A stretch of 64,000 nucleotides of DNA from positions 1 through 64,000 of the IMG/VR virus record IMGVR_UViG_3300030116_004360. One strand, written 5' to 3'. Under the pieces are notes generated by a model. The model was given only the letters and a program-made list of their open reading frames with translations, searched no databases and was not told the DNA's origin. The translations under genes were made by a program, and so were the position numbers. Every line of letters begins with the position of its first letter. Position 1 is the first letter of the stretch. Shown one piece after another: positions 3,670 to 21,825 of this stretch. The DNA is from a virus.

Positions 3670-3890
3670 ATATGGAAAAATGGCAAGAAGTATTAAAGAA
3701 AAAGAAAAAGAAAAAGAGAAAATCAACTGTTAATCAAGCAGGTAATTACACTAAACCATCAATGCGTAGAAGATTATTTAATGCTATAAAAAGAGGAACA
3801 AAAGGTGGTCCGGCTGGAAAATGGTCTGCAAGAAAAGCACAAATGTTGGCTCAAAAGTATAAAAAGAAGGGTGGCGGTTATCGTGACTAA
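3666..3890 (+). CDS. Small basic protein, N-terminal half of a DUF5872-like domain
   Basis: YTKPSMR...KGGPAGKWSARKAQMLAQKYKKKGGGY. N-terminal WQEVLK tag. Confidence 0.65.
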   Translation: MNMEKWQEVLKKKKKKKRKSTVNQAGNYTKPSMRRRLFNAIKRGTKGGPAGKWSARKAQMLAQKYKKKGGGYRD

Positions 3891-4155
3891 ATGGCAAAAA
3901 GTTCTAAAGGCTAAAACTAAGCGACAACAAGATTTAACTCAATGGACTCAAGAAGAATGGGGAAGTCAAGAACAACATAGAGCCAAAGCAAAAGGAAAAA
4001 AAGCCCCATCTAAAACAAAAGGAAGATATATGCCAAAAGCAACTTATCAGAAAACACCTAAGAAAACTTTAGATTATCAAGATTCAAAGAAAAGAAAGGG
4101 TCGTAAAAAAGGTATTCAACACGTAAAAACAGGAAAGAAATTTAGTCAAAAGTGA
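3883..4155 (+). CDS. Small basic protein, C-terminal half of a DUF5872-like domain (start re-called to GTG 3883)
   Basis: In frame with the 3805 ORF. LTQWTQEEWG...GRYMPKA. Begins MTKWQKVLKA like its neighbours. Confidence 0.6.
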   Translation: MTKWQKVLKAKTKRQQDLTQWTQEEWGSQEQHRAKAKGKKAPSKTKGRYMPKATYQKTPKKTLDYQDSKKRKGRKKGIQHVKTGKKFSQK

Positions 4156-4499
4156 TTATAATGTGGAAAAGTATTCTTAAAAAAGAACCTAAAAAAGGGA
4201 CAGGTAAAAAACCAAAAGGTTCTTCTAGAAGATTATATACAGATGAAAACCCAAAAGATACTGTTCCTGTTAAATTTAAAACGGCTCAAGACGTAATAGA
4301 TACATTCACAAGTTCAGCGTTTAAATCTAAATCACATCTAAGACAATCACAAATAATAAATGTAGTTGAACAAAGATTACGAGTAGCAGTTAAAAATGCA
4401 AAAGACCCTGAAACTAAAAAGAGATTAAATAAAGCACATAAAGTAGCATTAACCTATAAAGAAAGAAGTAAAAGAAAAACACAGAGGATGAAAAAATGA
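4152..4499 (+). CDS. Small basic virion-associated protein (likely start 4161)
   Basis: MWKSILKK tag. The LYTDENPKDT motif resembles uncharacterised viral proteins. Confidence 0.6.
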   Translation: MIIMWKSILKKEPKKGTGKKPKGSSRRLYTDENPKDTVPVKFKTAQDVIDTFTSSAFKSKSHLRQSQIINVVEQRLRVAVKNAKDPETKKRLNKAHKVALTYKERSKRKTQRMKK

Positions 4500-4864
4500 G
4501 TTGGAAAGAAGTATTAAAAGCCCATTGTGGGACAGAAAGAATGGACACAGAAGATGATGATGAAGAGTTTGGAAAAACCCTTGTTGGTAATCAAAAACGT
4601 CTTGATAAAGATAAAGATGGTAAAATAACTGGAAAGGATTTTAAGATGCTTAGAGATGAAAAAAAAGCAGTAAAGAGTGATTCTGATATAGAAAAAGAAA
4701 TTCTTGCTGAAATTAAAAAAGAAGGGGGAGCATTAGGTATGAAGAATTTAAAACAAATATGTCCTCCTAAAGATTTAAATAGAGTTCTAGATGCTATGAA
4801 AAGAAAGAAAGTAATTTTCATGCACAGTGATGGAGACATTTATACTCATAAACCAAAGAGGTAA
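4496..4864 (+). CDS. Putative head-core protein with EF-hand-like loop
   Basis: MSWKEVLKA tag; LDKDKDGKITGKDF loop; C-terminal wHTH-like segment. Confidence 0.55.
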   Translation: MSWKEVLKAHCGTERMDTEDDDEEFGKTLVGNQKRLDKDKDGKITGKDFKMLRDEKKAVKSDSDIEKEILAEIKKEGGALGMKNLKQICPPKDLNRVLDAMKRKKVIFMHSDGDIYTHKPKR

Positions 4865-5255
4865 TTATATGAATTGGGAAATTATTCTTAAAGAAATGAG
4901 TTGTCCTAGAGCAACCCAAGATTTAAAACTTAACACTAAAAATAGAAATATGGCTATAAAAGAAGACCATATTAAATACGGCCCACTTAATTTAAATGAT
5001 GAAAAATATTGGGTTGATGCAGCAAAACATTGGAATACATCAGTTGAAGTTGCTAAACAATCTAATTGTAGTAATTGCGTTGCTTTTGATATTAGTCCAC
5101 GAATGATGGATTGTATGCCACTTGAAGGGGATTTAGGTTATTGTTGGATGCATCATTTTAAGTGCCATAAGGATAGAACGTGTTATACATGGGCAGCCGG
5201 TGGACCGATAGATACCGATAAAACTTCAAAACAAAACCAAGAAAAAGGTGAATGA
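4827..5255 (+). CDS. Cys-rich viral protein (likely start 4869)
   Basis: MNWEIILKE tag; CPRAT, CSNC, GYCW..FKC...RTC..W. Confidence 0.6.
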   Translation: MMETFILINQRGNYMNWEIILKEMSCPRATQDLKLNTKNRNMAIKEDHIKYGPLNLNDEKYWVDAAKHWNTSVEVAKQSNCSNCVAFDISPRMMDCMPLEGDLGYCWMHHFKCHKDRTCYTWAAGGPIDTDKTSKQNQEKGE

Positions 5256-5598
5256 TATGGATGAAAAATGGTTTATGACTCTAAAGGCAAAAAAGCCTGA
5301 CCCTCGCTTAAAAAGAGCAGGTGTTTCTGGTTTCAATAGACCAAAAAGAACACCTTCTCATAAAACAAAATCACATATTGTTGTAGCAAAGGATAAAGAT
5401 AAAGTTAAAACAATTAGATTTGGTCAACAAGGAGTTAAAACTAATCAAACTGCTGGACAACGTAAAGCCTTTAAATCTCGTCATCGTAAAAATATTAAAC
5501 GCGGTAAATTGAGTGCGGCATATTGGGCTGATAAAGTAAAATGGAGTCCAAAGAAAACTAAAGAAAAGAAAAATAAAAAGTGGAGAAAGGGGTCTTAA
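5248..5598 (+). CDS. Small basic viral protein
   Basis: EKWFMTLKAK tag; KTIRFGQQG...FKSRH...SAAYWA motif resembles a widespread viral DUF. Confidence 0.6.
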   Translation: MNDMDEKWFMTLKAKKPDPRLKRAGVSGFNRPKRTPSHKTKSHIVVAKDKDKVKTIRFGQQGVKTNQTAGQRKAFKSRHRKNIKRGKLSAAYWADKVKWSPKKTKEKKNKKWRKGS

Positions 5599-7235
5599 TT
5601 ATGGCAGAAAGAAGAAGATTTTCTATTCGTAGTTTATTACGAAGACAAACACCTGCGCCAGCAGACCGTAAAACATTCCAATTTGGAATCCAAGAGCGTG
5701 AACACGCTTATTTTATGACCGCGCCTGTAATTTATCATATGGCGCAACAATCAGTAATTGTTCGCACTTGCACTACACAATTAAAACAAGAAGTGTTTAG
5801 GCGTGGTTATTTATGGAAAGAGGCTTTTACTAAACAATGCGTAAGTTGTGGCAAAAAACATGAAAGAGCCGTTGAACAATGTGTTGAATGTGGTAGCACT
5901 AATTTAAGAAATCCTGACCCTAAACAATTACAATATGCTAAAAAATTCATGGAAGATTATGTTAATACATCTAATCAATTATTTATTGATGTGTTAAAAG
6001 AATTAGAAGATGATTTAAATATTATGGATGACGCATATCTTTGTTTAGTTAAAGAATATTTTATTGATGGTGATGGACAAATTAAACTACATAGGATTAA
6101 AGAACTATTTAGAAGTGACCCTGTAACTATGCATATTTACGCTGATGAGTTTGGTCAAAGAGGAACTAAAGGTTTTATATGTCCTATTCATAGAACACAA
6201 TTATATACAGAAGCACACGAAAGTTGTGAATTATGTAATGCAGAAACTAAACCTGTTCATTATGTTAATAGAGTTCATGGTGAAGACCAATATTATATTG
6301 AAGGAGAGGTAGTTCATTTTAGTAAATATGCTCCTAGTCGTTTATATGGTATGTCTCCAATTATTACTTTATGGAACCATGTAACTACATTACTTGCTAT
6401 GGAACAATATGTAAATCAATCATATTCAAAACGAAGGATGCCTAAAGGACTACTTGCAGTTCAAACTAGAAATATTGATTCAATGAAAACCTTTTGGAGA
6501 GCAGTTAAAGAAAGAATGGAGCAAGACCCTCATTTTATCCCTGTAATGGGAATAGAAGCAGATGGTGGAAAAGGTGGTGTTGAGTGGATTAAATTCATGG
6601 ATAGCCTAAAAGAAATGGAATATGTATCTGTTAAAGATGATTTAAGAGATAGAATTTCAGCGTTTTATGGAGTAAGTAAAATCTTTATGGCTGATAACAC
6701 TACTAGTGGTGGACTTAACAATGAAGGTATGCAAATACTTGTTACAAATAGAGCAGTAGAAATGGCGCAGAGTGTTTACAATAAATATGTATTTCCATTC
6801 ATTACAAGACAATTTGGTATTACAGATTGGGAATTAGCACTTCCTCCATCAGAAGAAGAAGATGAGATTGCTAGAATAAGAAAAAGAGAATTAGAAGTAA
6901 ATATTGCGGGTTCAATGAAAAATTTAGGTTTTGAAGTTGATATGGATGAAAAGGGTAGGTTTACTTATACTAAACCAAAGCCAAAGGAAGATACTCCTAA
7001 AGAAGGTGAAGAAGAAGAAAAACCCTTTGAAAAAGACCCATTAGCAGGAACAAATATAGATGCTTCACAAATGGGACAATTGCAGGAACAGGCTTTACAG
7101 GGTGGAAAAGATTCACCCCCGGCCAAAAGAAATAAAGCCTCGATGAGCGTAGGCCCACCAAATAGAAACGCTGGATTACCAAAAGAAGCAGCAAATAATA
7201 ATGTAGATAGAAGAACAGAAAGAAGAGTTGGTTAA
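5580..7235 (+). CDS. Portal protein with inserted Zn-ribbon motifs (likely start 5601)
   Basis: Size and position; LYGMSPI and ISAFYGVS portal-like motifs. Inserts CVSC..CVEC and CPIH..CELC. Confidence 0.88.
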   Translation: MEKGVLIMAERRRFSIRSLLRRQTPAPADRKTFQFGIQEREHAYFMTAPVIYHMAQQSVIVRTCTTQLKQEVFRRGYLWKEAFTKQCVSCGKKHERAVEQCVECGSTNLRNPDPKQLQYAKKFMEDYVNTSNQLFIDVLKELEDDLNIMDDAYLCLVKEYFIDGDGQIKLHRIKELFRSDPVTMHIYADEFGQRGTKGFICPIHRTQLYTEAHESCELCNAETKPVHYVNRVHGEDQYYIEGEVVHFSKYAPSRLYGMSPIITLWNHVTTLLAMEQYVNQSYSKRRMPKGLLAVQTRNIDSMKTFWRAVKERMEQDPHFIPVMGIEADGGKGGVEWIKFMDSLKEMEYVSVKDDLRDRISAFYGVSKIFMADNTTSGGLNNEGMQILVTNRAVEMAQSVYNKYVFPFITRQFGITDWELALPPSEEEDEIARIRKRELEVNIAGSMKNLGFEVDMDEKGRFTYTKPKPKEDTPKEGEEEEKPFEKDPLAGTNIDASQMGQLQEQALQGGKDSPPAKRNKASMSVGPPNRNAGLPKEAANNNVDRRTERRVG

Positions 7236-9057: not shown

Positions 9058-9420
9058 ATGGAATGGGAAAATACTTTAAAAAGAAAACCTCCGCAGGTTA
9101 TTGCTAAAGAAAAGAGTGCTATATTAGATTCTTTATCAGCAAAACAAAAAAAGCGTCTAAAGAAAACATTACAGGCAGCAGAACCCTCAGAATACTTTGG
9201 TCAAGATTTTACTAAATTAGGTGAACTTATTGATATGATGAAAGCCTTAGAGTTTATTAAATCTGATAATAAGTTAGATAAAAGAGTAAAGACATTAGAG
9301 GATTCAAATATTGATATTGTTGCTACTGCTACTAAATTAAGAAAAGAATATGAAACTACATATCGTGCTTTAAGAGGTATGATTTATCCACAAAAGAAGG
9401 GGGATTTAAGAAATGAGTGA
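9058..9420 (+). CDS. Hypothetical head-region protein
   Basis: MEWENTLKR tag; coiled-coil. Confidence 0.6.
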   Translation: MEWENTLKRKPPQVIAKEKSAILDSLSAKQKKRLKKTLQAAEPSEYFGQDFTKLGELIDMMKALEFIKSDNKLDKRVKTLEDSNIDIVATATKLRKEYETTYRALRGMIYPQKKGDLRNE

Positions 9421-9658
9421 AGAAAAGAATGAAATGTTAGAACTATTGAAAGCATTAGTTGAAAAAGTAAATGAATTAGAAAAGGCTGTTTATAATAAAG
9501 ATAATTTATTGATGAAATCTGGTTGGGTTGAAACAGGAACACCAAGACCTAAATTAGGTAGTGCAAACGCTGATGTTGATAATATTGCCAAAATGGATTG
9601 GTCAGATATTACTGAAATGGTCGGTAGATTAGAGAATCAAGAGCGTGGCGGATATTAA
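9413..9658 (+). CDS. Mini-scaffold-like protein
   Basis: N-terminal coiled coil. C-terminal MDWSDITEMV matches the protease/scaffold C-terminus MDWADIHNLV. Confidence 0.55.
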   Translation: MSEEKNEMLELLKALVEKVNELEKAVYNKDNLLMKSGWVETGTPRPKLGSANADVDNIAKMDWSDITEMVGRLENQERGGY

Positions 9659-10011
9659 TGAACTGGGAAAACGTCTTAAAAGTTCGCAGACCAAAAATAG
9701 GTATTGGTGATAAACTTTTTAGATTAGCGTTTGAAAGAGTAGTTAAAAAACATGGTGGATTAAGAGTTTCAAGAAGACAGTTTCATGATTTAATGAAGAG
9801 TGCGATAATTGAATTGGCAGAAGAATCTAAATCAAAAAAGGATGCAGAATATAGAGTTAGAATGAGAAATGCTAGTGCGTTAGGAAATAAAGATGCATTA
9901 TTTGTTTATTTAAAAAGAGTAATAGGTCTTCCTAGAGCAAACTTTATTAAAAATTATGACGATAATACAACAGAAATAAAACTTCCAAAAGAATGGAAAC
10001 ACGGTGATTAA
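9658..10011 (+). CDS. Hypothetical basic protein
   Basis: MNWENVLKV tag. Confidence 0.6.
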   Translation: MNWENVLKVRRPKIGIGDKLFRLAFERVVKKHGGLRVSRRQFHDLMKSAIIELAEESKSKKDAEYRVRMRNASALGNKDALFVYLKRVIGLPRANFIKNYDDNTTEIKLPKEWKHGD

Positions 10012-10264: not shown

Positions 10265-12778
10265 GTGGCTACCTCTGGTGTTGTGTTTGAAAAAGAAACA
10301 AACCCTCTCTCTGGTAGAGTAATTGATTTATTTGAAAAGACACGCATGGCGTATCTTTCTGCTAGAGAGTCACCTAAAGATTATTCTGATTTATGGCGTA
10401 ATGTTGTTAAACAGATTCGTGGGGCATACGATGATTTAGATGACTTTGCGAAGCATCTAAAAAAGATTTTAAATAACGAATTGTTATTTAATAAGGAAGT
10501 ATTAGACCCATCTTCTGATTCTGCTCGTCAAGTGTATGAAGCACTAAAACGGGTTCGATATAATGCGGAAATTGTAAAAGACCCTTTCCTAAAGGCATTT
10601 AATGATAAAGTATTGGAAGAACTGCTTGAAAATGAGAGCGTATATGCGAAATTTATCCATTGGGCTTTACGTGACGACAATAAAACCCTTAATGCAGACA
10701 GTTATAAGAATTTAGGCTTAGAACCTGATGAAATTACAGGGGGTTATCCCGGTCTTGACCTAGTTGAGAAGGATTTGACTTCGTTTATTGTGGAGCATTA
10801 TGGTGATGGAAAAGATTCTAAACGGGTAAATAGTAAGTATGCGGGTGCTAAAGCCCTTTTAGAAAAAGTATTCAAAGAAGAAGGTTCAGATAAACAATGG
10901 TCTAAGTTAGTGGGTGTTGAACTAAAGAAAGCAGAAAAATCTAAATCTAATTTTATAGTTCCCAACAAACCTATGTATAGAATATTCGATATTGATGATA
11001 TGAATGAACTTCGTGGATTTACCGGAGAGTTTCTAGTTCAAGAGAAGTATGACGGTATGAGAATCCAAATTCATAAGATAGATAATAATATTAAGATATT
11101 TTCATACAATGAGAAGGATATTACAGACAAATGCCCTGAACAAGTAAAACTTATGAAAAAGAAGGATATGCCAGAATGTATTTTAGATGCAGAACTGATG
11201 TTATTTGATGATAAAGAGGCTTTACATAGAGCAGATACAATAGCACATATATTTAAAAATCAATATCCTGATGCAACACTTCGCATCCATGTGTTCGATA
11301 TTATGCGACATGAAGATAGAGATTTATTAGATACAGAATTACAAGATAGAATTAATATTTTATTCCATCATTACTCACCAAAATCACATGAATTGTTGGC
11401 TTTCCCATCTAAAAAAGATACTCGTATAGCAGATTCATTAAAAGAGGTTGAGAGTTACGGTAAAGAAATCATGAAAATTCCTACTGCTGAAGGAGTAGTT
11501 ATTAAAGACCTAACTTCTACATATTATGTTGGAACTCGTAAAAATCCAAAATGGGTTAAATGGAAAAAGTTTATTGATTTAGATATGATTGTTTTAAACA
11601 AAAAAGAAACTAAGTCGGGACTTAATTCATATACATTAGGAGCAGGGCCATTAACAACCGAAGAAATGAGAGAATTTGAATCAGTTGAATTTGATAATAA
11701 AAAATATCTTAATGTGGGCAAAGCATTAAATACAAAAATTGATGTAGAAGTCGGAAAAATTATTCGTGTTAAAGTTGATGAAGTAAAGAAAAATAAGAAA
11801 GGTTTTAGTTTATTTTCTGCAAAAGTTATTGAAGTTCCAGAAGTTGAAAGTCCTGAAAAAATAATAACTCTTGAAATGCTTTCTAAAGAAACTAAAAAAT
11901 CCTTAAAATATAAAATAGAAGCATTAGAAAAATCTTATACTGTTACTGATTTAATACATGGTGAAGCAACTCTTATTCTAAAAAGTGAATTTGATGGTTT
12001 TACAATTTATGGATTTGAAGAAAATAATCTAATGGCAAAAAATGCTTTAGCAAATCTTGATTTAATTAAAGACCAATTAGAAATAATTTCTAAAGAAAAG
12101 GTAAGTGTTCTTCGTGTTGGTATTAAAAATTTCTTGACGGAAAAAGGAGAATCTACCCTTGAAGAAATAGAAGATTGGATTAAGAAAAATCCTGAGATGT
12201 TAGAATTATATAATGATAAACTAAATGGTAAAACTAAAGAATTGTCTCAGTTTTTAAGAAATAAAGCAGAAGATATACTCTATGCAAACAAAAAGTTTAG
12301 AGCAAATACAAATGTTTTAGAAAAGGATATTGAAAAAGCAGAAACTCCTAAAGAGTTTAGAAAGGGTAAATTTAAGATATATCTTAGAGATGACGGAAAT
12401 CTTAATGTTATGTTTTTATTAAATAAAGAACAAACAGGTTGGTTAGTTGATATTAACAATGTTGATGATATATTTGCATACTTAGGTAAAGCAAATAAAT
12501 ATCCTGCGGAAGTTGCATCTAATGTTGATAAAACCAAATTGGTTGATGAAGGTGATGTTGAGTTAGGAATACAAAGGGACGGTTATCACGAATATAAATT
12601 AGATGGGAACAAATTTGATACTAGATTGCATTTTAGAGTCATTGAAGTAGATAATAAAGAAATGTGGCTAACATGGTCTGGATATAAACAAGAAATGAAT
12701 GAAATGGATAGTGATGAAGGAATATGGGACTTATCAAAGGATAGGTATAAGAAATTAACCATACCCAAAAAGGATTAA
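10265..12778 (+). CDS. Multidomain ATP-dependent DNA ligase in the head module
   Basis: Motif I QEKYDGMR, III ILDAEL, IIIa VFDIM, IV EGVVIK, V WVKWKK. Extra N-terminal domain and a C-terminal region resembling LigD phosphoesterase. Confidence 0.88.
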   Translation: MATSGVVFEKETNPLSGRVIDLFEKTRMAYLSARESPKDYSDLWRNVVKQIRGAYDDLDDFAKHLKKILNNELLFNKEVLDPSSDSARQVYEALKRVRYNAEIVKDPFLKAFNDKVLEELLENESVYAKFIHWALRDDNKTLNADSYKNLGLEPDEITGGYPGLDLVEKDLTSFIVEHYGDGKDSKRVNSKYAGAKALLEKVFKEEGSDKQWSKLVGVELKKAEKSKSNFIVPNKPMYRIFDIDDMNELRGFTGEFLVQEKYDGMRIQIHKIDNNIKIFSYNEKDITDKCPEQVKLMKKKDMPECILDAELMLFDDKEALHRADTIAHIFKNQYPDATLRIHVFDIMRHEDRDLLDTELQDRINILFHHYSPKSHELLAFPSKKDTRIADSLKEVESYGKEIMKIPTAEGVVIKDLTSTYYVGTRKNPKWVKWKKFIDLDMIVLNKKETKSGLNSYTLGAGPLTTEEMREFESVEFDNKKYLNVGKALNTKIDVEVGKIIRVKVDEVKKNKKGFSLFSAKVIEVPEVESPEKIITLEMLSKETKKSLKYKIEALEKSYTVTDLIHGEATLILKSEFDGFTIYGFEENNLMAKNALANLDLIKDQLEIISKEKVSVLRVGIKNFLTEKGESTLEEIEDWIKKNPEMLELYNDKLNGKTKELSQFLRNKAEDILYANKKFRANTNVLEKDIEKAETPKEFRKGKFKIYLRDDGNLNVMFLLNKEQTGWLVDINNVDDIFAYLGKANKYPAEVASNVDKTKLVDEGDVELGIQRDGYHEYKLDGNKFDTRLHFRVIEVDNKEMWLTWSGYKQEMNEMDSDEGIWDLSKDRYKKLTIPKKD

Positions 12779-12804: not shown

Positions 12805-14046
12805 ATGGAGATAGTGTCGAACCAAGACCTATTACTCAAGGGAAATTTAGACGATGAGTTTACTATATTAAAAGCCGAAGAGTTAGTTATTGGGGGTTAT
12901 GCGAGCATAGAAATAGTAGATAAACAAAATGACTTAATTACATTAGACGCATTAAACGAAGCAGTAAAGAAATTTATGCAAGAAAAGAAATTCAGAAACG
13001 TAATGACCAATCATTCAAATGTTCAAGTAGGAGAAGTATTAGATAATTACCGAGATAAAACTGGTAAACTATGGAAAACAGATGTAGATGATGTTGGATT
13101 CTTTGTAGTAATTAAATTAAGAGAAGATATTGAAAAAGCAAAAGAAGTATCTCGCGGAATTAGAAAAGGAACATTAAGAAGTTTTAGTATTGGTGGACAA
13201 GCACTACATAAGAAACAAAAATATCACAAAGAACTAGGCGAATATAACGCAATAGAGAAATTAGAACTCCATGAAGTAACAATATGCGAAAAGGGGATAA
13301 ATCCAGAAGCAAAATTTGATATACTAAAAATGGAAAAAGAAGGTGAAATTATGAGCGAGAAATTAGAAAAAGCAATTGATGAACTAGATAACTTATTGAA
13401 GGAAGTGAAAGAAATGACGGAAGACAAAGAAACGACAGAATACATGGATACTGATGAAAAAGGTATGTATGGTGAGAAAATGGACGAAAAAGCAGACAAA
13501 GACATGGAAATGGCTGATAAAGACATGGAAATGGCCGATGATGATGTTGAAGATGCAGAAACAGAATTAAAGGGTCGTAAAGATATAGCAACCGGAGAGG
13601 TTGAAGACCATGTTCCCGAAGATAGGATTGTTATTGAAGGTGGACGACCTAAAGCATCAACAATGCCTGTAACTAAAGGTTTTGTTGTTCCAACACTTGA
13701 TTTAAGTGCTGAAAACATTGAGAAGGCTTATGCTGAATATAGAGCAGAACAATTAGAAAAATTGGCTTATTCCGATGTTAAGAAGCAGTTTGAAGACCGC
13801 TTTGAGGCAGAAATGGAAGCAAAGAAACTTGAAATTGCTAAAGCCGAGTATGATGCTCAAGAAGAAGTATTAGCATTAAAGAACGAATTTGCAGAATTGC
13901 GAAAGAGTTTAACTGCTGAGAAAGAAATGATTGTTAAGGCTCAAACTGAAGCAACAGCATTACCCGAAAATTTCCCAACAACAATGGAGGATTACGCTAC
14001 AATGGATTGGGCGGATATTCATAACTTAGTGAGGGATATGGAATAA
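12805..14046 (+). CDS. Prohead protease fused to scaffold
   Basis: HK97-type protease: IGGYAS..VDKQND, catalytic-like NHS and SFSIGG, EVTICEKGINPEA. Acidic coiled-coil C-terminal half; directly before the capsid gene. Confidence 0.9.
   Translation: MEIVSNQDLLLKGNLDDEFTILKAEELVIGGYASIEIVDKQNDLITLDALNEAVKKFMQEKKFRNVMTNHSNVQVGEVLDNYRDKTGKLWKTDVDDVGFFVVIKLREDIEKAKEVSRGIRKGTLRSFSIGGQALHKKQKYHKELGEYNAIEKLELHEVTICEKGINPEAKFDILKMEKEGEIMSEKLEKAIDELDNLLKEVKEMTEDKETTEYMDTDEKGMYGEKMDEKADKDMEMADKDMEMADDDVEDAETELKGRKDIATGEVEDHVPEDRIVIEGGRPKASTMPVTKGFVVPTLDLSAENIEKAYAEYRAEQLEKLAYSDVKKQFEDRFEAEMEAKKLEIAKAEYDAQEEVLALKNEFAELRKSLTAEKEMIVKAQTEATALPENFPTTMEDYATMDWADIHNLVRDME
13492..13539 (+). repeat. 21-nt tandem repeat encoding ADKDMEM twice
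   Basis: gcagacaaagacatggaaatg gctgataaagacatggaaatg gccgat in the scaffold linker. Confidence 0.7.
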
Positions 14047-14071: not shown

Positions 14072-15403
14072 GTGAAAAAGATGAGTAACTATATACGAAC
14101 AATTAAAGATTTAGAAGCAGCAACCTATGGTGTTGGAAACTTCCCAAATAACGATTTATTGAAAGCAGCAGGTATTGTTGGAGGATTACATACTCCTCAT
14201 GATGGAGCAACAGGTTTTTCTGGTGTTTCAGGCATTACTAACTTATATGGCGTAATTTACGGTCAAAAAGTTTGGTCTATGTTGAATCAAGAAGTTAATG
14301 CACTATCAATGCTGGCTAAACGCCCATATACTTCAAGTGGTTGGAGAATCCTAAAGAGCCGTCCTTCTGGCGGTAGTGGTTCTTCTTTTACTACTACACA
14401 AACTAATAACGCTTTAGGAACAGATAACCCCGGTTCTGATTTAATTGGTGGTGTTCCTGAAAATGAGTCACTATCTAACTTAACTGCGGTTGCTCCTGTT
14501 TATGATAAATTATTCATGAGTCCTAAGACAGTAGCCCATTTGTTTGAGTTCAGTGAACTTGCTATGGAAATGGCGAAAATTGACGATGGTATCGGAGATA
14601 TTCGTGCAATTGTCCGTGAAGACATGGGTAAATTCCATGCAGAAGTTCAGAATAAAATGCTATTAATGCCTCTAGTAGATTATGACCATAGTAATCTAGG
14701 AGATATTGATAGAAACTATACTTCTCTATCTAAGGTAGTAACTTCTAATGCTGAATTAACTGCATTAAAAGCAGCAGGTCAAACTGCTACTGCTTTAGGT
14801 GCTGGTAATGCAAAAGATATTACTCAATTATACGGTAATAACGATAGAGATACTGGTGCATCTTTTATGGATTCACAGGTTAATTTCGGTGGAGGTTATG
14901 CTACTTCTGATAATCGAAGTTTAACTCTAAGTTTGTTAAATAGTTTGATTCAGGATATTCGTCTTGCTGGTGGTGGAACAAAGGTTATTCTAACTGGATA
15001 TGATACCATTCAAGCATTAGCAGACCTATTACAGGCTCAAGAGCGATTTATGGACAGAAAGGAAATTATGCCTTCTCATAACGGTGTTCGTGGAGTAAAG
15101 GGTCGTGAAGTCGGATTCCGTGTAGCGACATACTTTGACCTACCGCTAATTCCATGTAAAGACATGACTAAAACAGTAAATAGTTCATTAACTGCTGCTG
15201 ATTGTCTTTCTGACCTATTGTTCCTTGATACTGACCATTTGTGGCTTGCAGTAATGAAACCAACCCAATACTTTGAGGATGGTATTACTTCTGGCAACCC
15301 ATTCGGTGTTGGAAAACTCGGAAATCAGGGTATGTATCGAACTATTGCTGAAACAGGTTGTTCATTCTTTAAATCTCAAGGTAAGATTACAAACCTCAAG
15401 TGA
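14072..15403 (+). CDS. Major capsid protein, HK97 fold (likely start 14081)
   Basis: About 440 aa directly after the protease. YGQKVWSMLNQE, GGVPEN and GFRVATYFDLPLI resemble halovirus/magrovirus capsid proteins. Confidence 0.88.
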   Translation: MKKMSNYIRTIKDLEAATYGVGNFPNNDLLKAAGIVGGLHTPHDGATGFSGVSGITNLYGVIYGQKVWSMLNQEVNALSMLAKRPYTSSGWRILKSRPSGGSGSSFTTTQTNNALGTDNPGSDLIGGVPENESLSNLTAVAPVYDKLFMSPKTVAHLFEFSELAMEMAKIDDGIGDIRAIVREDMGKFHAEVQNKMLLMPLVDYDHSNLGDIDRNYTSLSKVVTSNAELTALKAAGQTATALGAGNAKDITQLYGNNDRDTGASFMDSQVNFGGGYATSDNRSLTLSLLNSLIQDIRLAGGGTKVILTGYDTIQALADLLQAQERFMDRKEIMPSHNGVRGVKGREVGFRVATYFDLPLIPCKDMTKTVNSSLTAADCLSDLLFLDTDHLWLAVMKPTQYFEDGITSGNPFGVGKLGNQGMYRTIAETGCSFFKSQGKITNLK

Positions 15404-16168: not shown

Positions 16169-16471
16169 ATGACCCCAATAGGAGCGAGTATTATGGTGCA
16201 AGCAAGTAGAACGTCAGGTGTATTAACTGCATCTGCAATTGTAAATAGAGGTCAATGTAAATTAATGAGTATTCATGCTTGTGAAACTGCTGGTTCAATG
16301 GCTCAAATTAAGATATTTGACGGAACTGATGCAACAGGTCTTGAAATTGCTAGAATAATTCTAGCAGCAGGACAAACAATTGAATTTGATATGCATGGCG
16401 TAATTGCTAAAAATGGTTTATACTTTGAAGAAAGTTCTGGTGCAGTTGCTTGCTCTGTTGAGTTTCAGTAG
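16169..16471 (+). CDS. Small beta-sandwich structural protein (likely start 16193)
   Basis: All-beta pattern IKIFDG...GVIAKNGLY, like phage minor virion proteins. Confidence 0.5.
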   Translation: MTPIGASIMVQASRTSGVLTASAIVNRGQCKLMSIHACETAGSMAQIKIFDGTDATGLEIARIILAAGQTIEFDMHGVIAKNGLYFEESSGAVACSVEFQ

Positions 16472-16867
16472 GTGATTATTATGGCAGCATTAAATAAAGA
16501 TACAAGATTAATTATGACGATTTTATTCGTTGGTGCTATGAGTGGAACTAACGTATATTTTTATGCAAATTATGGAATTTCATTTCCATATACTGCATTC
16601 GCCCATGCAATTCTTTTTGGGTTATTAACAGTTGGAAGTGTTATGGGTATGAAAGCAATTTTTGATTTAGCAATTAATGATAGAATTGAATTATATTTGT
16701 TAGACCGAAGAATAAAAGCATACTGGGATAGACGAACTAGAGAAGAACAACAAAGGCAGAAGATTAGAGAAACTATGAATATGAATCAAATGAGTTTAAA
16801 TTATATGGCTCCAAGTTATGAATCTTCTGAAATTAGTAATGAGTTTTTAGCGACGGTTGAACAGTGA
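16472..16867 (+). CDS. Two-TM membrane protein with cytoplasmic helix (likely start 16481)
   Basis: Hydrophobic LIMTILFVGAMSGTNVYFYA and FAHAILFGLLTVGSVMGM, followed by a charged helix. Confidence 0.7.
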   Translation: MIIMAALNKDTRLIMTILFVGAMSGTNVYFYANYGISFPYTAFAHAILFGLLTVGSVMGMKAIFDLAINDRIELYLLDRRIKAYWDRRTREEQQRQKIRETMNMNQMSLNYMAPSYESSEISNEFLATVEQ

Positions 16868-17081
16868 TATTATGGTAGGTTTTCTATTCAATGATGAAAC
16901 AGTAGTTTCATATGATTTACAAAGAGCGCATTCAGCAGATGTTTGGTTTATTAAAGCAAGAGCATGGATATGGGGAATAACTTGTGCAGTAGCAGCATTT
17001 TTAATTGGAAACATTTTAGGTGTATTTAGTATAAATGTATTTGGAATTGCATTTGATTTAATTGGAAGTATGTTACATTAG
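16857..17081 (+). CDS. Small membrane protein (likely start 16872)
   Basis: WIWGITCAVAAFLIGNILGVFSINVFGIAFDLIG hydrophobic C-terminal half. Confidence 0.7.
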   Translation: MNSDIMVGFLFNDETVVSYDLQRAHSADVWFIKARAWIWGITCAVAAFLIGNILGVFSINVFGIAFDLIGSMLH

Positions 17082-17093
17082 GTGTGAGTTTAT

Positions 17094-17747
17094 GTGTCCG
17101 TTGTTGCAGGTTTCGCTATTGTAGTAACAGAGGCAGTATTTTCATTATGGAAAAAGGTTCATGCAATTAATTTTGGAATATATGGAGTTAGTAAAGCAGG
17201 TAAAACTACATTACATCATCAATTAAGAACAAGAGGAGAAGTTCCAAATATTTCTAAAAGAACTGTTGGATTACATAGAGCAACAAGAAAATTAGTTAAA
17301 ATTGATGGAGATGCACATACATTAAAAACTGCTGATGTTGGTGGAGAATCTAAATATTGGAATGAATGGATGAAGGACTTAAGAAAAAGAAAAGTCAAAT
17401 ATGTAATATTTTTATTAGACAATAGACATTTAAATGGAAATAATATGGAACAACAAATAGCATGGAAATTTTTAGTTGATTTAATTTGTAAAGATAAATG
17501 GCCGGGAGGAAAGAAAAAGAAATCTAATGACTATCCTTTAGCAGTTGGATTATGGGCTAATAAAGCAGATTTATGGGCAAAAGGTTTTTCAAAAGACCCA
17601 AGAAAACATGAGATTTTTGACCCATTTAGATACGGAATGAGCCTATTAAATGATAAAGGAATACCAACACATCAATATATAATTAGTGCAAAAACAGATT
17701 CAGAAATGGTTTATCGAGGAATAATGACTATGATTAATGATTATTAG
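17094..17747 (+). CDS. Small Ras-superfamily GTPase, Arf/Sar1-like
   Basis: G1 GVSKAGKT, G2 RTVG, G3 DVGG, VIFLLD strand, G4 NKAD, G5 SAK; hydrophobic N-terminal helix. Confidence 0.9.
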   Translation: MSVVAGFAIVVTEAVFSLWKKVHAINFGIYGVSKAGKTTLHHQLRTRGEVPNISKRTVGLHRATRKLVKIDGDAHTLKTADVGGESKYWNEWMKDLRKRKVKYVIFLLDNRHLNGNNMEQQIAWKFLVDLICKDKWPGGKKKKSNDYPLAVGLWANKADLWAKGFSKDPRKHEIFDPFRYGMSLLNDKGIPTHQYIISAKTDSEMVYRGIMTMINDY

Positions 17748-18398
17748 GTGAATAATATGCAAGGTTATGCTCCATCAGGATTATTAATAGGTAGTCAAAC
17801 ACCTAATCAAGTTCCATCTTCTTTTTTAAATAAAAGAGTTGCTGCTCGTTCAGCAGGGCCAATGGAAGAATATCAGTTTTCTGAAATTAGACCAAGAAAA
17901 CAATTAAAAGAAATACGTAAAGTATTATTACCTGAGAAAAAACGCTTTTTATTTGTTAAGTTTGGATATAAATTTAATCTTACAAACAGATGTGTTATTT
18001 GTGGAACACATCATGAATGGGATATTTCCGACCCATATAGGCCGGGAATACCATTACATGAAGTAACTAAAGGTAGGCCATTAAGAGGAACTTATTGCCA
18101 AAAACACTCTGCTATGTATAAACAAATGGAAATGTTAGAACAACAAATTTTAGCAGATGAACACGGTTTAGAATTTAAAAGGTGGATACCTAAACCAAGA
18201 GTTCCACAGGTAATAAATAAAGGCCCATTAACTTCATTAGGGCCAAATGATATAACAAGCCTAATTGCTGCTGGTTGGGTAATTAAACCACCAACAGTAG
18301 ATGAGGAACCACCTAATGAAGAATATAAAAGATTGATGATTGAAATAAAAGGTTCATTAGAAAGAGTAAATAAATTAGTAACAGGAGATGAAGAATAA
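17748..18398 (+). CDS. Zn-finger protein (likely start 17757)
   Basis: CVICG...YCQKH; Pro-rich segments; C-terminal coiled coil. Confidence 0.6.
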   Translation: MNNMQGYAPSGLLIGSQTPNQVPSSFLNKRVAARSAGPMEEYQFSEIRPRKQLKEIRKVLLPEKKRFLFVKFGYKFNLTNRCVICGTHHEWDISDPYRPGIPLHEVTKGRPLRGTYCQKHSAMYKQMEMLEQQILADEHGLEFKRWIPKPRVPQVINKGPLTSLGPNDITSLIAAGWVIKPPTVDEEPPNEEYKRLMIEIKGSLERVNKLVTGDEE

Positions 18399-19096
18399 TG
18401 GTATTTGGAACAAGTAATAGAAAAGTGTTAAACACAATTAATGATAGTAATACACAGACGTTTAAAACAGTAAACAATTTACTAACATTACAAGAAAATC
18501 ATGTTGAAGAATTTTTTCAATATCATGGTTTAGATTTCTTTGGTGCATTAGAACAATTAATGTCTGATGTTACAGAAAGAGTAGTTTCACAGATGTTATC
18601 TAAAATGGAATTATCTTTAACTGCTTCAACAGGAAAAATAACTGTTTCACCCGATTGTTTAAGAGATTACGAAAAGATTACTCAAGAGAATATTGATTTA
18701 GATATTCAAAATTTATTAAACACATCTGTAAATAGTGAAGTTATAATGCAAAGAAAGATGGCTAAATCTTCATACTTAGAATCACAGGGTTATTCTTCAC
18801 CACAACCTCAAATGCCTCAAATTCCACAACAACAACCAATGAATATTCAAGGACAACCACAAACAGGTCAAATGAATATGCAAATGAATCAACAAATGGG
18901 TGCTATTAATAATCAATCAGGTTATCCTGTTCCACCCGCAGGATATGATAATATGAATAACCCATATTGGATGGACCCAAATACGGGTCAAGCAACTTAT
19001 TCACCACCTTCAAGCGGTTTAGGCTTATCTAAGGCTGGACCCGTTGTAATGAAAACTGCTCAAAAAGCAGCAGCATGGGCTAAATGGTTGGCTTAA
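18398..19096 (+). CDS. Helical protein with Q/P/M-rich low-complexity region and amphipathic C-terminus
   Basis: PQPQMPQIPQQQPMNIQGQPQ..., GYPVPPAGYD, ends AQKAAAWAKWLA. Confidence 0.65.
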   Translation: MVFGTSNRKVLNTINDSNTQTFKTVNNLLTLQENHVEEFFQYHGLDFFGALEQLMSDVTERVVSQMLSKMELSLTASTGKITVSPDCLRDYEKITQENIDLDIQNLLNTSVNSEVIMQRKMAKSSYLESQGYSSPQPQMPQIPQQQPMNIQGQPQTGQMNMQMNQQMGAINNQSGYPVPPAGYDNMNNPYWMDPNTGQATYSPPSSGLGLSKAGPVVMKTAQKAAAWAKWLA

Positions 19097-19109: not shown

Positions 19110-20696
19110 ATGGTTGAAATAATGTGGAAAGGTTCATTAGTTGCTAATATTGGTGAGCCTAACCACCTTATTATCCAAAAAGAATTTTTACTCTCAAAAT
19201 TTATGGGTTCAGAAGCAGATGCTATTGAATATACAATCAATTCAATTTATCCTAATTTTATAGAATTAACTGAACAACAAACAGGAAAAAAGTTATCTAA
19301 TGAAGAGATTAAAAGAGTTGTTAGCCAAGCAAAGGCTCAACTTAAAAAGATTGAAAAAATGGGAATAGAAAAAATAATTAAAGATGTTCAACTTCCTGAT
19401 GGAAATAGAAATAAAAGGATTATGAGAACTTTAGATAAACCATATCCTGATGTTACTGTATCTGAATCTAGCGATACAAGAAAACAAGCAGAATTTTCTG
19501 GTAATTTAAGTGAAAAGGTTGTTTCACGAAGACAGGATAAAAGATTATCAGATATGTTAGAAGGAAAATATAAAATGACTAAAGGTGAATTCAATTCTAT
19601 ATATGGAATAGATAGTTTAAAAACCACTGGTAAAAAAGTAAACGTAGCAGGTGGTTCTTCTGTAAGTTTTACAATAGATAAAGTAGCAACCAAAGATAGT
19701 GTAAATTATAAATTAACTATGTTATTTAACTTAGTTCCAGATATATCAGCACAAAAAACTATTTTAAGGTCAGAAGGTTTATCTAATGTTGCGTATAATG
19801 AAATTATTGATGAATCAAAATCAAGTTTACGTGAAAGAGCAGAAGAGGATTGGTATAAAGGAAGTAGAGTAAGGCAAAATATTGAACAACATATGTCTCA
19901 ATATGATAAAAGAACATCTTATAATCAACTTATTGCTGATTTACAAGCAGATTTAGTAAAACGTAAAGCAGACCTTAAAAGGTCTAAGGCTTACGAAGAA
20001 GCAAGTAAAACTAAAAAAGTTTCACTTGAACGTGAATATGTTAGAGATTTAAAAGATAGATTAAAGACCTTAAAAAAACAAAGAGATGATTTTAAGAAAA
20101 GACAACAAAAAGCAGAAAGAGATATAGATTTAGTAACTACCTTTGCTATTCCAATAGATTTACAAAAACAAGTAATAGATAAGGCAAAATCAGATGCCGG
20201 TGAACCTATAAAACGTAAAATTAGAACAGAAGAACAATTAAGAAAAAAATTTCAGAAGGCTATGTTAGCAACAGGAAATAAAGCAATCTTTGATAAATTA
20301 AATTTATATGATATACTTAGAGAAGGTTCTGATGTTATTAATGCTCATTATGCTACTAACGCAGTAATAGGACTACAACTCGATTTAGGTAACACAAGTG
20401 AAGTTAAAGATAAAGTAAAATTAAAGGTCTTACTTAAAGTAACTCATTTAGGTGAATTAGATGTTTTACAACATAGAAGGTTTTTGCAAGGTAAATTTAC
20501 TGCTGGAACTCAAGTTAGAACTGATTTAGAAGGTAGATATGGTAAAATTGGTCCCGAAAAATATCTTGATGCTCCTTCTAGTCCAATAAGAGATTTATTA
20601 GTTAAATCTGTTTCTGCAAAATATGAAAAATTAGAACGTAAAATTCAAAAAATGGAAGAAACAGTAAATAGAGTATTAGGTGAAAGAGATGACTAA
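19110..20696 (+). CDS. Large basic coiled-coil protein of unknown function
   Basis: 528-aa ORF with a central coiled coil. Confidence 0.6.
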   Translation: MVEIMWKGSLVANIGEPNHLIIQKEFLLSKFMGSEADAIEYTINSIYPNFIELTEQQTGKKLSNEEIKRVVSQAKAQLKKIEKMGIEKIIKDVQLPDGNRNKRIMRTLDKPYPDVTVSESSDTRKQAEFSGNLSEKVVSRRQDKRLSDMLEGKYKMTKGEFNSIYGIDSLKTTGKKVNVAGGSSVSFTIDKVATKDSVNYKLTMLFNLVPDISAQKTILRSEGLSNVAYNEIIDESKSSLRERAEEDWYKGSRVRQNIEQHMSQYDKRTSYNQLIADLQADLVKRKADLKRSKAYEEASKTKKVSLEREYVRDLKDRLKTLKKQRDDFKKRQQKAERDIDLVTTFAIPIDLQKQVIDKAKSDAGEPIKRKIRTEEQLRKKFQKAMLATGNKAIFDKLNLYDILREGSDVINAHYATNAVIGLQLDLGNTSEVKDKVKLKVLLKVTHLGELDVLQHRRFLQGKFTAGTQVRTDLEGRYGKIGPEKYLDAPSSPIRDLLVKSVSAKYEKLERKIQKMEETVNRVLGERDD

Positions 20697-21825
20697 AACA
20701 ATTTCTCCTAGTGATTATACAGATAATACTGTTGTTAATTATGATGCTGCTCAAGGATATTATTGTAGCGGTAAAGATATTGTAGCATTATTACAAATAC
20801 CTAGTGATAGTGGAACATTTAGTTCCAATACATCACCAACTGCGGTTGATGTAGGTAAAATCATTAAGCGAGTAGAAGATTATGTTGATGAACGTATTGG
20901 GTATAGTTATAGACCTAATGTTTATTCTGATGAATACCACAATTTTGAATTTAGGCCACTTACTCATGCTCAACGATTTAATTATGTAGATTACGTTGGT
21001 TTTATTCAATTAGAAAGAACAAAAATTAGAAAGATAATTTCATTAGAAGTTTGGCAAGGAACTGAATATAAACAATTAGCATCTAATCATGCTTCTGTAA
21101 CATTTAATTCAGATGCCGATAATGTAAGTAATATTCGTTTAACTTTACCTGATGGAGGATTTTTTGATTTAGCCGGTGCAGGAGATTTTGGTTCTGATTT
21201 AACTGCTAATGAATTTAATAATAAACTTGGTCCCGCAACTACGGCACTTGACTTTGCAGCGTTAGTTAATGAACAATATCCAACTAAAACACAACAGTTT
21301 ACAAAACAACAGTTAAAGAAGGCTAAAACAGCAAATGATGGAGTTCGTTCTGTCTCTGATTACTTTTATGCTTACATTGATACTGAAAACTCATCAAAGG
21401 TTATAATTACATCTTTATTGCCCGGAAATGATGGAGATTCTTGCACTATTACCGCCACTCAATCCCCCACTGATGGATGCACATTAGTTGATTTTGCACC
21501 ATCAGGAGCAGAAAAAAATAGAACTGAGGATTGGTGGATGATTGGAGATGAAGGCAAATTATTCTTTACTAGAGAGTTTCCTTACTTAAATAACAATTCA
21601 GTCCGTGTAAACTATATTACAGGTTCAGGTCGTGTTCCGGGTTATATTAATGAAGTAGCCACTAAATTAGCCGCTTCTGAATTATTGCGTCATGATGACT
21701 CTACCGTATTAATTGGTCAAACTGAAGGTGGTATAGATGCTAAAACTAAGTATGATGAATTGAGAAAAGATGCTAATGCTATTTTAGATTCTAAGAGAAG
21801 AATGGCATACTTTATGAATCTGTGA
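20680..21825 (+). CDS. Head-tail adaptor (neck) protein
   Basis: N-terminal YC...DI..LL and IKRVEDYVD; C-terminal VRVNYITG...VPGYINEVATKLAA, an SPP1 gp15-like pattern. Confidence 0.7.
   Translation: MKEMTKTISPSDYTDNTVVNYDAAQGYYCSGKDIVALLQIPSDSGTFSSNTSPTAVDVGKIIKRVEDYVDERIGYSYRPNVYSDEYHNFEFRPLTHAQRFNYVDYVGFIQLERTKIRKIISLEVWQGTEYKQLASNHASVTFNSDADNVSNIRLTLPDGGFFDLAGAGDFGSDLTANEFNNKLGPATTALDFAALVNEQYPTKTQQFTKQQLKKAKTANDGVRSVSDYFYAYIDTENSSKVIITSLLPGNDGDSCTITATQSPTDGCTLVDFAPSGAEKNRTEDWWMIGDEGKLFFTREFPYLNNNSVRVNYITGSGRVPGYINEVATKLAASELLRHDDSTVLIGQTEGGIDAKTKYDELRKDANAILDSKRRMAYFMNL

Follow-up and report, generated by a model that had tools for sequence, protein, structure and literature searches.

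The window analysed here is a stretch of 64,000 nucleotides (nt) that forms the first part of IMG/VR virus record IMGVR_UViG_3300030116_004360, a record of 90,477 bp which is 96% complete according to CheckV. Its guanine-plus-cytosine (GC) content is about 31%, and its genes are arranged in a plus-strand arm that extends to about 38 kb and a following minus-strand arm. Within the plus-strand arm, positions 16472-19096 hold a block of five open reading frames (ORFs), here named A to E, which encode a small GTPase together with two predicted membrane proteins and two soluble proteins. In magroviruses, the block forms a gene module that is self-contained and specific to the virus.

ORF A (16472-16867, plus strand) has a GTG start and encodes a membrane protein of 131 amino acid residues (aa). 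ORF B (16857-17081, plus strand, 74 aa) begins with a TTG codon and has its first 11 nt in common with A. The small GTPase C (17094-17747, plus strand, 217 aa) is followed by D (17748-18398, plus strand, 216 aa), which starts 1 base past the stop of C, and by E (18398-19096, plus strand, 232 aa), which has one base in common with the end of D. Spacing within the block is thus confined to gaps of 0-12 nt or small overlaps, and all five tightly coupled ORFs described in an earlier reading of the DNA, made from the letters alone (the sequence-only reading), are present. A starts 1 base past the end of the upstream ORF o16169 (16169-16471), and A to E are therefore part of a continuous gene run that begins with the gene of the HK97-type major capsid protein (MCP, 14072-15403). 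On the downstream side the block is followed, after one intervening gene, by the adaptor-like gene o20680, which matches gp125 of the halovirus HVTV-1 (E=2.5e-16), in agreement with the proposed location between capsid and neck genes. Besides the tape-measure protein, A, B and C are the sole plausible membrane proteins of the late operon.

The window belongs to a magrovirus, a tailed virus assigned to the Marine Group II archaea (Poseidoniales), since its structural module includes the gene (10265-12778, plus strand) of a protein of 837 aa that contains an ATP-dependent ligase domain, and since C has 62% identity with a protein of Poseidoniales virus YSH_150918 that is annotated as "hypothetical". 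A second ligase within the structural module is given as a hallmark of magrovirus groups A and B in PMC5434244, which also names magroviruses as the third most abundant group of marine viruses.

The five genes are conserved as a unit. Among 80 IMG/VR loci that were found via the GTPase (61-67% identity; clade 1), tblastn detected A in 78, B in 79, C in 80, D in 76 and E in 72, and the order was constant: protease-MCP-o15440-o16169-A-B-C-D-E-variable gene-o20680-o22018-o22593. Those of the missing matches that were checked (L012, L015, L031, L047, L054, L065 and L073, a subset of the misses) fall at the ends of their loci. The converse search started from the capsid gene: 32 of 80 MCP-anchored loci had at least 5.2 kb of DNA downstream, and every one of these (32/32) carried o16169 along with A to E.

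A second, more distant clade comprises 80 loci from records of about 100 kb (GC 0.38-0.58), whose GTPase is about 30% identical to C and whose MCP, in the 5 genomes tested, is 40-48% identical to that of the window. Judged by position and size, the order A'-B'-C-D'-E' and a sixth gene F recurs in 70, 76, 80, 80, 77 and 77 of the 80 loci, respectively. A' has 145-220 aa with one or two transmembrane (TM) segments and a charged coil, B' about 80 aa with one TM segment, D' 300-357 aa and E' 200-247 aa, while F is a small protein with two TM segments; a homolog of F was not found in the genome of the window virus. D' directly follows C in 80/80 loci by position and size and in 51/80 by hidden Markov model (HMM). 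Profile comparisons with hhalign identified D (97.6%, E=2.6e-12) and E (93.3%, E=2.8e-7) as homologous across the clades; the similarity of A was marginal (E=0.0099), and B and B' had no significant profile similarity, B' being a positional analogue only. The clade-2 block is situated elsewhere in the genome: in the three genomes for which the distance was derived from coordinates (G001, G003 and G004), the MCP gene follows 20-24 kb downstream of it on the same strand, and in locus L101 it directly precedes the gene of a helix-turn-helix protein resembling the small terminase (TerS).

Co-conservation of the five genes, as anticipated in the sequence-only reading, thus extends over two deep clades with different genome positions. 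The five-gene synteny, whose test across magroviruses and haloviruses had been suggested, was recovered in both magrovirus clades and not in the halovirus HVTV-1, for which profile HMMs of A to E gave nothing better than E=0.49 in the head-tail region. HVTV-1 has the adaptor homolog gp125, preceded by four small genes and without A to E, and the block is therefore placed outside the ancestral head-neck connector; it moves as a whole and is kept wherever examined within magroviruses. In 50,697 phage records, tblastn detected no match to C, D or E. Chance ORFs or a chance arrangement were rejected on account of the fixed order in the 80 clade-1 loci, the clade-2 unit and the converse search.

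The block is undescribed in the searchable literature, where a query for magrovirus and GTPase together was unmatched. The word "GTPase" is absent from the main texts of PMC5434244, PMC10160649, PMC11706807, PMC5332604 and PMC8651126, whose supplementary gene tables may list one, and from the whole text of PMC10768690. Automated annotations name some relatives of C "GTPase SAR1 family protein".

The small GTPase C

C contains all G-box and Arf-like motif strings that had been quoted for it. The five G boxes characteristic of the Ras superfamily and TRAFAC GTPases follow the patterns GxxxxGK[ST] for G1, Thr for G2, DxxG for G3, NKxD for G4 and SA[K/x] for G5; in C they are GVSKAGKT (31-38), RTVG (56-59), DVGG (81-84), NKAD (156-159) and SAK (198-200), and the protein further contains DVGGESKYWNEW, VIFLLD and FSLWKK. 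In alignment A1, composed of 25 relatives with 60-74% identity, residues G31, G36, K37, T38, T39, T57, D81, G83, G84, E85, N156, K157, D159, S198, A199 and K200 are invariant, which indicates strict selection on the residues predicted to bind the nucleotide. The position equivalent to Ras Q61 is occupied by Glu (E85) in the 25 aligned relatives and by Q, E or A in the cluster representative P0121 and more distant relatives. A polybasic loop (GGKKKK, 138-143) located between G3 and G4 is also conserved.

The best Pfam family for C is Arf (PF00025; 20.2-20.6 bits, E=3.3e-4, below the cut-off of 22.3), followed by SRPRB (PF09439; 19.3 bits, E=7.8e-4, below the cut-off of 25) and, at lower rank, by Roc and MMR_HSR1. 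Three remote relatives score above the Arf cut-off (P0157 with 27.2, P0178 with 36.5 and P0193 with 24.5 bits). NCBIfam returned the generic small_GTP domain alone, under its cut-off. As a single sequence, C matched Rab11 best among the sequences of the PDB (E=0.12); a profile built from 14 members of the wider family (A4) retrieved mini-Galpha, full-length Arl3 (2.8e-11) and 8oun_A (8.2e-11). The AlphaFold2 (AF2) model of C has a mean predicted local distance difference test (pLDDT) score of 73 and a predicted TM-score (pTM) of 0.74, and shows the Ras-like fold plus one additional helix at the N-terminus (2-22); the switch regions (35-38 and 46-58) have a pLDDT below 50. Foldseek returned at least 500 matches to this model at E<=1e-3, with Rab, Ras and Galpha first (probability 1.00). 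VIA-align against 48,161 chains placed the SR-beta chain 2fh5_B first (Z 14.2, root-mean-square deviation 2.7 over 158 residues), followed by a chain of 9edr (Z 14.0), Arf6 (13.9), an Asgard RagA-like protein (13.6) and Sar1 (13.0); these top rows are regarded as tied because their Z values lie within about 1 of each other. Profiles and predicted structure together support C as a genuine, though very divergent, small GTPase that belongs to the Arf/Galpha/SR-beta branch and stands outside Arf proper.

Arf signatures, as listed in PMC11914678, are a Gly at the third position of G3 (DxGG), an Asp in G1 (GLDxAGKT type) and an amphipathic N-terminal helix. The first is present in C as D81-V-G83-G84, invariant in A1, and the second is absent, G1 being GVSKAGKT in C and GATMVGKT in the consensus of the relatives. 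C also shares with the Arf family the Ras-like fold and a helix before beta1, and differs from it by a Glu in place of the catalytic Gln, a polybasic insert before G4, an Ala instead of the Arf-typical Trp before the G3 Asp, and by being encoded by a virus.

The third signature was evaluated against the range of Arf-like helices, which have a hydrophobicity (H) of 0.201-0.629 and a hydrophobic moment (muH) of 0.236-0.636 (PMC11914678). Residues 2-19 of C, directly followed by KK, are uniformly hydrophobic with H 0.88 and muH 0.26 on the Fauchere-Pliska scale (H 0.67 and muH 0.2 on the Eisenberg scale), and no 18-residue window falls inside the Arf range. Such a window exists in 7 of 25 clade-1 sequences and in 5 of 6 clade-2 representatives, whose N-terminal helices are milder than that of C. 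The designation of C as an Arf/Sar1-like GTPase hence stands for the branch, to which the Pfam ranking, VIA-align and the Arl3 profile match point; it does not stand for Arf itself, given the score under the Arf cut-off, nor for an Arf/Sar1-type amphipathic helix, since that of C is too hydrophobic. Its hydrophobicity outside the amphipathic range makes the helix look like a permanent membrane anchor, an architecture similar to that of SR-beta.

SR-beta has its own N-terminal hydrophobic anchor and recruits a soluble partner. C resembles it in the order of a hydrophobic anchor (2-19 plus KK) and an Arf-like G domain, and SR-beta occupies the top structural row. Differences are the score of C under the Pfam cut-off, its G3 sequence DVGGE, which in SR-beta is of the DxPGH type, and the SRX/longin-like partner, which was not detected.

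The family of C comprises 339 homologs at E<=1e-3 among 5.8e9 proteins. When 1.84e9 cluster representatives were searched exhaustively with a profile, only 85 clusters reached E<=1e-3, and many of these are fragments. In a FastTree reconstruction of 61 sub-sampled rows, with an arbitrary root and local Shimodaira-Hasegawa-like (SH-like) support, the two viral clades clustered together (93) with five orphan proteins from short contigs as their sister group. The viral and orphan GTPases formed a branch separate from the bacterial Arf-like group (91-93). With C, the Arf-like GTPases gain a branch that is specific to viruses and carries an anchor, which is of interest for the diversification of membrane-acting small GTPases outside the eukaryotes. 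The clusters of the remote relatives are singletons on short contigs, except for P0195 on a contig of 572 kb, and neither P0175 nor P0196 was detected in a viral contig. Among cellular proteins, the nearest group to which a broad profile extended is a large family of Arf-like GTPases of about 232 aa (PF00025; P0210-P0326) that are labelled "ADP-ribosylation factor-like"; the few named ones derive from Chloroflexota/Anaerolineae, some of them on contigs of Mb size.

Scanning one genome per prokaryote species, the clade-2 protein was encountered in only three records. One is a contig of 106 kb (L172) in a single-cell genome labelled Poseidoniales, which directly supports the assignment of the host; the others are two 8-kb contigs in alphaproteobacterial metagenome-assembled genomes and are probably mis-binned virus. 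With the family profile, 89 of 150 further genomes of the host order gave weak matches (E 3.5e-5 to 1e-3), and the other 61 gave no match. The weak matches mostly covered little beyond the P-loop, some of them about 120 of the 226 profile positions, and a close homolog of C was not found in these genomes. This result argues that the gene of C is not a recent copy of a host gene.

Membrane proteins and soluble partners

Protein A contains two hydrophobic segments (about 12-32 and 41-69) in a family-averaged hydropathy plot of 56 sequences, followed by a strongly charged C-terminal helix (DRRIKAYWDRRTREEQQRQKIRE). Its description as a protein with two TM segments is borne out by this average, while at a stricter single-sequence threshold only residues 41-64 pass and the first segment fails. 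Protein B has a single hydrophobic segment (about 41-66) and a conserved RAHSAD motif, as expected for the small TM protein it had been taken for. Median identities across the clade-1 loci are 55% for A and 52% for B. Neither protein matches a Pfam or PHROGs family at E<=0.1 and hence neither matches a holin family. A is small, has at least one TM segment and ends in a charged hydrophilic C-terminus; in this build it is holin-like, of the class-II type, without family membership. Adjacency to an endolysin was likewise not observed for A and B, and the scanned neighbours of A to E include no hydrolase in Pfam or PHROGs.

In HVTV-1 the slot of the magrovirus cassette is occupied by gene 124 (L081:10557-10889), which lies directly upstream of the adaptor gene and encodes a protein of 110 aa whose N-terminus contains one TM segment; this protein has no detectable similarity to A or B.

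Proteins D and E have no hydrophobic segment in the family-averaged plots. The characterization of D as a zinc-finger and Pro-rich protein agrees with a putative zinc site, C82-x2-C85 ... C117-x2-H120, and with a C-terminal half that is rich in Pro and includes the conserved motif IKPP (18250-18300). C82, C117 and H120 are invariant over both clades (alignment A3). The AF2 model of D has a pLDDT of 76.5, and of near 90 in the core (30-145). Its fold was matched neither by Foldseek (best E=1.6, T4 endonuclease VII) nor by VIA-align (best Z 4.5, helical hairpins only). No Pfam family is shared among 23 D members, D alone matches no Pfam family at E<=0.1, and no PDB sequence match was obtained. 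A degenerate zinc knuckle of the HNH/EndoVII type was considered for D; features in the ESM Atlas gave 0.82-0.83 to Endonuclease_7 and HNH, which is below any meaningful level, and this candidate was dropped because the His pair is not kept in clade 2.

Protein E consists of a conserved, helical N-terminal domain (about 1-130), a low-complexity stretch rich in Q, P, M and N, and a conserved tail with the motif AAWAKWLA; its C-terminus is AQKAAAWAKWLA, and this tail is conserved within its clade. Both the Q/P-rich region and the C-terminal tail of the original description are therefore present. Inside the low-complexity stretch, a weak WW-like hairpin is located at about residues 175-205 (18920-19010). 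The WW family (PF00397) was matched by 8 of 27 E members at E<=0.05, with a best score of 21.3 bits against a cut-off of 26.9 over profile positions 9-31; the E protein of the window is not among these matches. Against Pfam at E<=0.1, E gave Mo25 alone, at chance level. Its PDB profile search and Atlas search were both empty, the Atlas model having a pLDDT of 0.46. As to contacts among the partners, D and E might bind each other through the WW-like hairpin of E and the IKPP motif of D. The prediction of a complex of C and D (A1 plus A3) gave no model (score 0.00) and weighs neither way. A, B, D and E thus all stand outside the curated Pfam families.

The closest archaeal comparison is the ArvA-ArvB-ArvC system (OapABC; PMC10927574), which likewise combines a small GTPase bearing an N-terminal helix with a zinc-protein operon partner at an archaeal membrane. 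However, neither D (23 members) nor E (27 members) contains DUF2072 or DUF2073/OapB, and A and B are without counterpart in that system. A relation to ArvA, as it had been envisaged, was accordingly not confirmed in this comparison of gene neighbours. The ArvB/OapB marker was detected in none of the 101 host-order genomes searched, but was detected in the positive controls Haloferax and Methanosarcina. The sampled hosts thus appear, from their gene content, to be without the sole known archaeal system of a vesiculating GTPase.

Function of the module

Our leading reading, held tentatively, is that the module serves a late membrane step in virus egress. The module would be made late, alongside the virion genes. 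A, B and the anchored C would come together in the cytoplasmic membrane of the host, the G domain lying on the cytoplasmic side, as suggested by the KK behind the helix. The GTP/GDP state of C would then control when D and E bind at the membrane site, and the assembled complex would alter or breach the membrane and let the progeny leave a host that is enclosed by an S-layer only. A, and in clade 2 also F, would act as the holin-like component and C as the timer.

Egress is ranked first because a lytic tailed virus must breach the membrane, because A, B and F are holin-like in build, and because the position of the block in L101 mirrors that of the lysis cassette of phage lambda, just upstream of a TerS-like gene. 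Further likenesses to holin lysis cassettes are the small size, one or two TM segments and charged tail of A, the small TM proteins B and F, and the placement among late genes. The module differs from such cassettes in having no endolysin partner, no holin family and an unusually high conservation, and we know of no described lysis system with a GTPase and two orphan soluble proteins. A last reason for the ranking is that no egress gene is known for an archaeal tailed virus; PMC10791045 calls this machinery "completely uncharacterized" and the holins elusive.

Several points weigh against egress. Egress, budding and lysis are alike inferred for the module. A and B match no holin family, and their median identities of 52-55% are above what is usual for holins. 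The block lies among head genes and is translationally coupled to them, which suits a morphogenesis factor at least equally well. Extra genes found at two junctions of the block share a tag with the tail of the prohead protease, which ties the neighbourhood to head biology. Fast, regulated GTP hydrolysis by C would not be assured, as the residue at the catalytic position varies among relatives. Finally, the scan for lysis genes, which revealed no endolysin or holin (Pfam, PHROGs or both), covered only about 26 proteins of the window.

The complete proposal, in which the anchored Arf-like GTPase, the holin-like proteins and D plus E carry out a GTP-timed membrane breach as the exit of magroviruses, is regarded as doubtful. 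Should egress prove right, no egress system would have been identified earlier for a tailed virus of archaea, and an Arf-type switch would have evolved inside a virus lineage, independently of host membrane trafficking. As a universal, well-delimited unit of five to six genes with an enzymatic switch, the block is a concrete candidate for expression and mutation despite the uncultured host.

The foremost rival is a role in membrane-bound assembly or maturation of the head, in which the module would keep an early stage of procapsid formation, or of DNA packaging, at the membrane and the GTPase would control release. It draws on the tagged proteins of the virus. Many small plus-strand proteins carry an N-terminal tag of the type M-S-W-E-D-I-L-K; tag sites lie at 3666-5598 and 9058-10011 of the window, at the C-terminus of the protein encoded at 119-607, at G000:C1:80599-84963, and in the tail of the protease (13990-14046). 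The pattern W-x-[DNEKQ]-[IVLM]-[ILVM]-[KRQ] occurs 13 times in the genome of the window virus, mostly N-terminal, versus 1.8 +/- 1.3 times in shuffles, and all 50 of 50 distinct protease tails of relatives end in a similar peptide, M-[DSEN]-W-[SAN]-[DE]-[ILV]. The tag is regarded as a candidate peptide for targeting to the capsid. In relatives, one or two additional genes stand exactly at the B|C or C|D junction (L002, L020, L036, L039, L041, L045, L046 and others; for example L046:6668-7698). The inserts read in eight loci begin with MW-x-[DN]-I-L-K, L057 excepted, and altogether 34 ORFs in 25 of the 80 loci have tagged starts, most of them at these two junctions. The inserts look like swappable accessory cassettes.

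Optional neighbours with the putative targeting tag of the protease tail are thus consistent with head assembly, and so are the position of the block within the morphogenetic gene set of both clades (between MCP and adaptor here, before the TerS-like gene in L101), its translational coupling to upstream ORFs of the head region, and its universality and good conservation, which resemble those of core morphogenesis genes. A precedent exists in phage T4, where prohead formation starts at the inner membrane and involves the membrane protein gp40. On the other hand, HVTV-1 builds a homologous head without A to E, none of the proteins A to E bears an N-terminal W tag, and the two clades differ in where the block stands with respect to the head genes. 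We also know of no tailed virus with a small GTPase in assembly. On balance this role is considered rather unlikely; if it were true, a GTPase-controlled, membrane-bound step would to our knowledge still be new for tailed viruses.

The module might instead remodel the host membrane without lysis, C being a viral switch of the Arf/ArvA kind, for instance for the budding of vesicles, an assembly compartment or an altered envelope, and D and E, recruited by C, a minimal coat. The Arf-like nature of C fits this explanation, as does the low-complexity region of E with its conserved hydrophobic tail. In archaea, the small GTPase ArvA and its Zn-ribbon partner bring about the formation of vesicles (PMC10927574), and the virus would have to supply the vesiculating function itself, since the sampled genomes of the host order are without ArvB or a close Arf-like GTPase. 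However, no match to DUF2072/DUF2073 or to a coat fold was obtained for D and E, the helix of C resembles a permanent anchor rather than an amphipathic wedge switched by GTP, and tailed viruses need no envelope. Such remodelling is decidedly unlikely.

Carriage inside or on the virion, with A, B, E and perhaps C and D entering the membrane of the next host to aid DNA delivery, would be analogous to the ejection proteins of P22 and T7. It would agree with the place of the block among head genes, the hydrophobic segments and Q-rich composition, and the conservation across the group. An enzyme with five invariant G boxes would nevertheless be an odd cargo, A to E are without the W tag of the candidate cargo proteins, and the clade-2 block lies 20 kb from the capsid gene, which leaves entry proteins very unlikely. 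Least probable of all is superinfection exclusion or another membrane-level defence or counter-defence: small membrane proteins in late operons of tailed phages often block the DNA entry of competitors and the block is absent from the halovirus relative, but such genes are usually variable accessories, whereas the block is present in 32/32 loci and conserved across deep clades.

Gene neighbourhood and occurrence

Upstream of the block, the plus-strand arm encodes the large terminase (744-2186), the portal (5580-7235) and the S78 prohead protease (12805-14046), in addition to the ligase-domain protein and the MCP described above; the tail genes lie on the same arm, beyond the head genes.

Between E and the adaptor-like gene lies a gene for a protein of 528 aa (19110-20696), which had zero tblastn matches in the 80 related loci. 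All 80 loci nevertheless contain a gene-sized gap of 1.3-2.3 kb in its place, and the slot between E and the adaptor is hence regarded as hypervariable, being kept while the 528-aa gene is unmatched. In clade 2, the flanks of the block (L101:1539-6520 and L101:11044-12477) encode long proteins with repeated motifs of the EPMDIAMRLLK type. DnaJ-type CxxCxGxG fingers were recognized there by eye on the upstream side (L101:3763-5034), and on the downstream side (L101:11044-12477) by a sub-threshold match to Pfam DnaJ_CXXCXGXG (21.7 bits).

In the comparison with the marine metatranscriptome run X20, 6% of the sampled words are shared. Inside the cassette, X20 yielded only pieces of 36-52 nt with mismatches, and transcription of the cassette is not evidenced in this run. 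Contigs of X20 cover positions 20271-21263, in the adaptor-like gene, at an identity of at least 99%, and DNA of the window virus or of close strains is present in sequencing runs of at least 13 studies.

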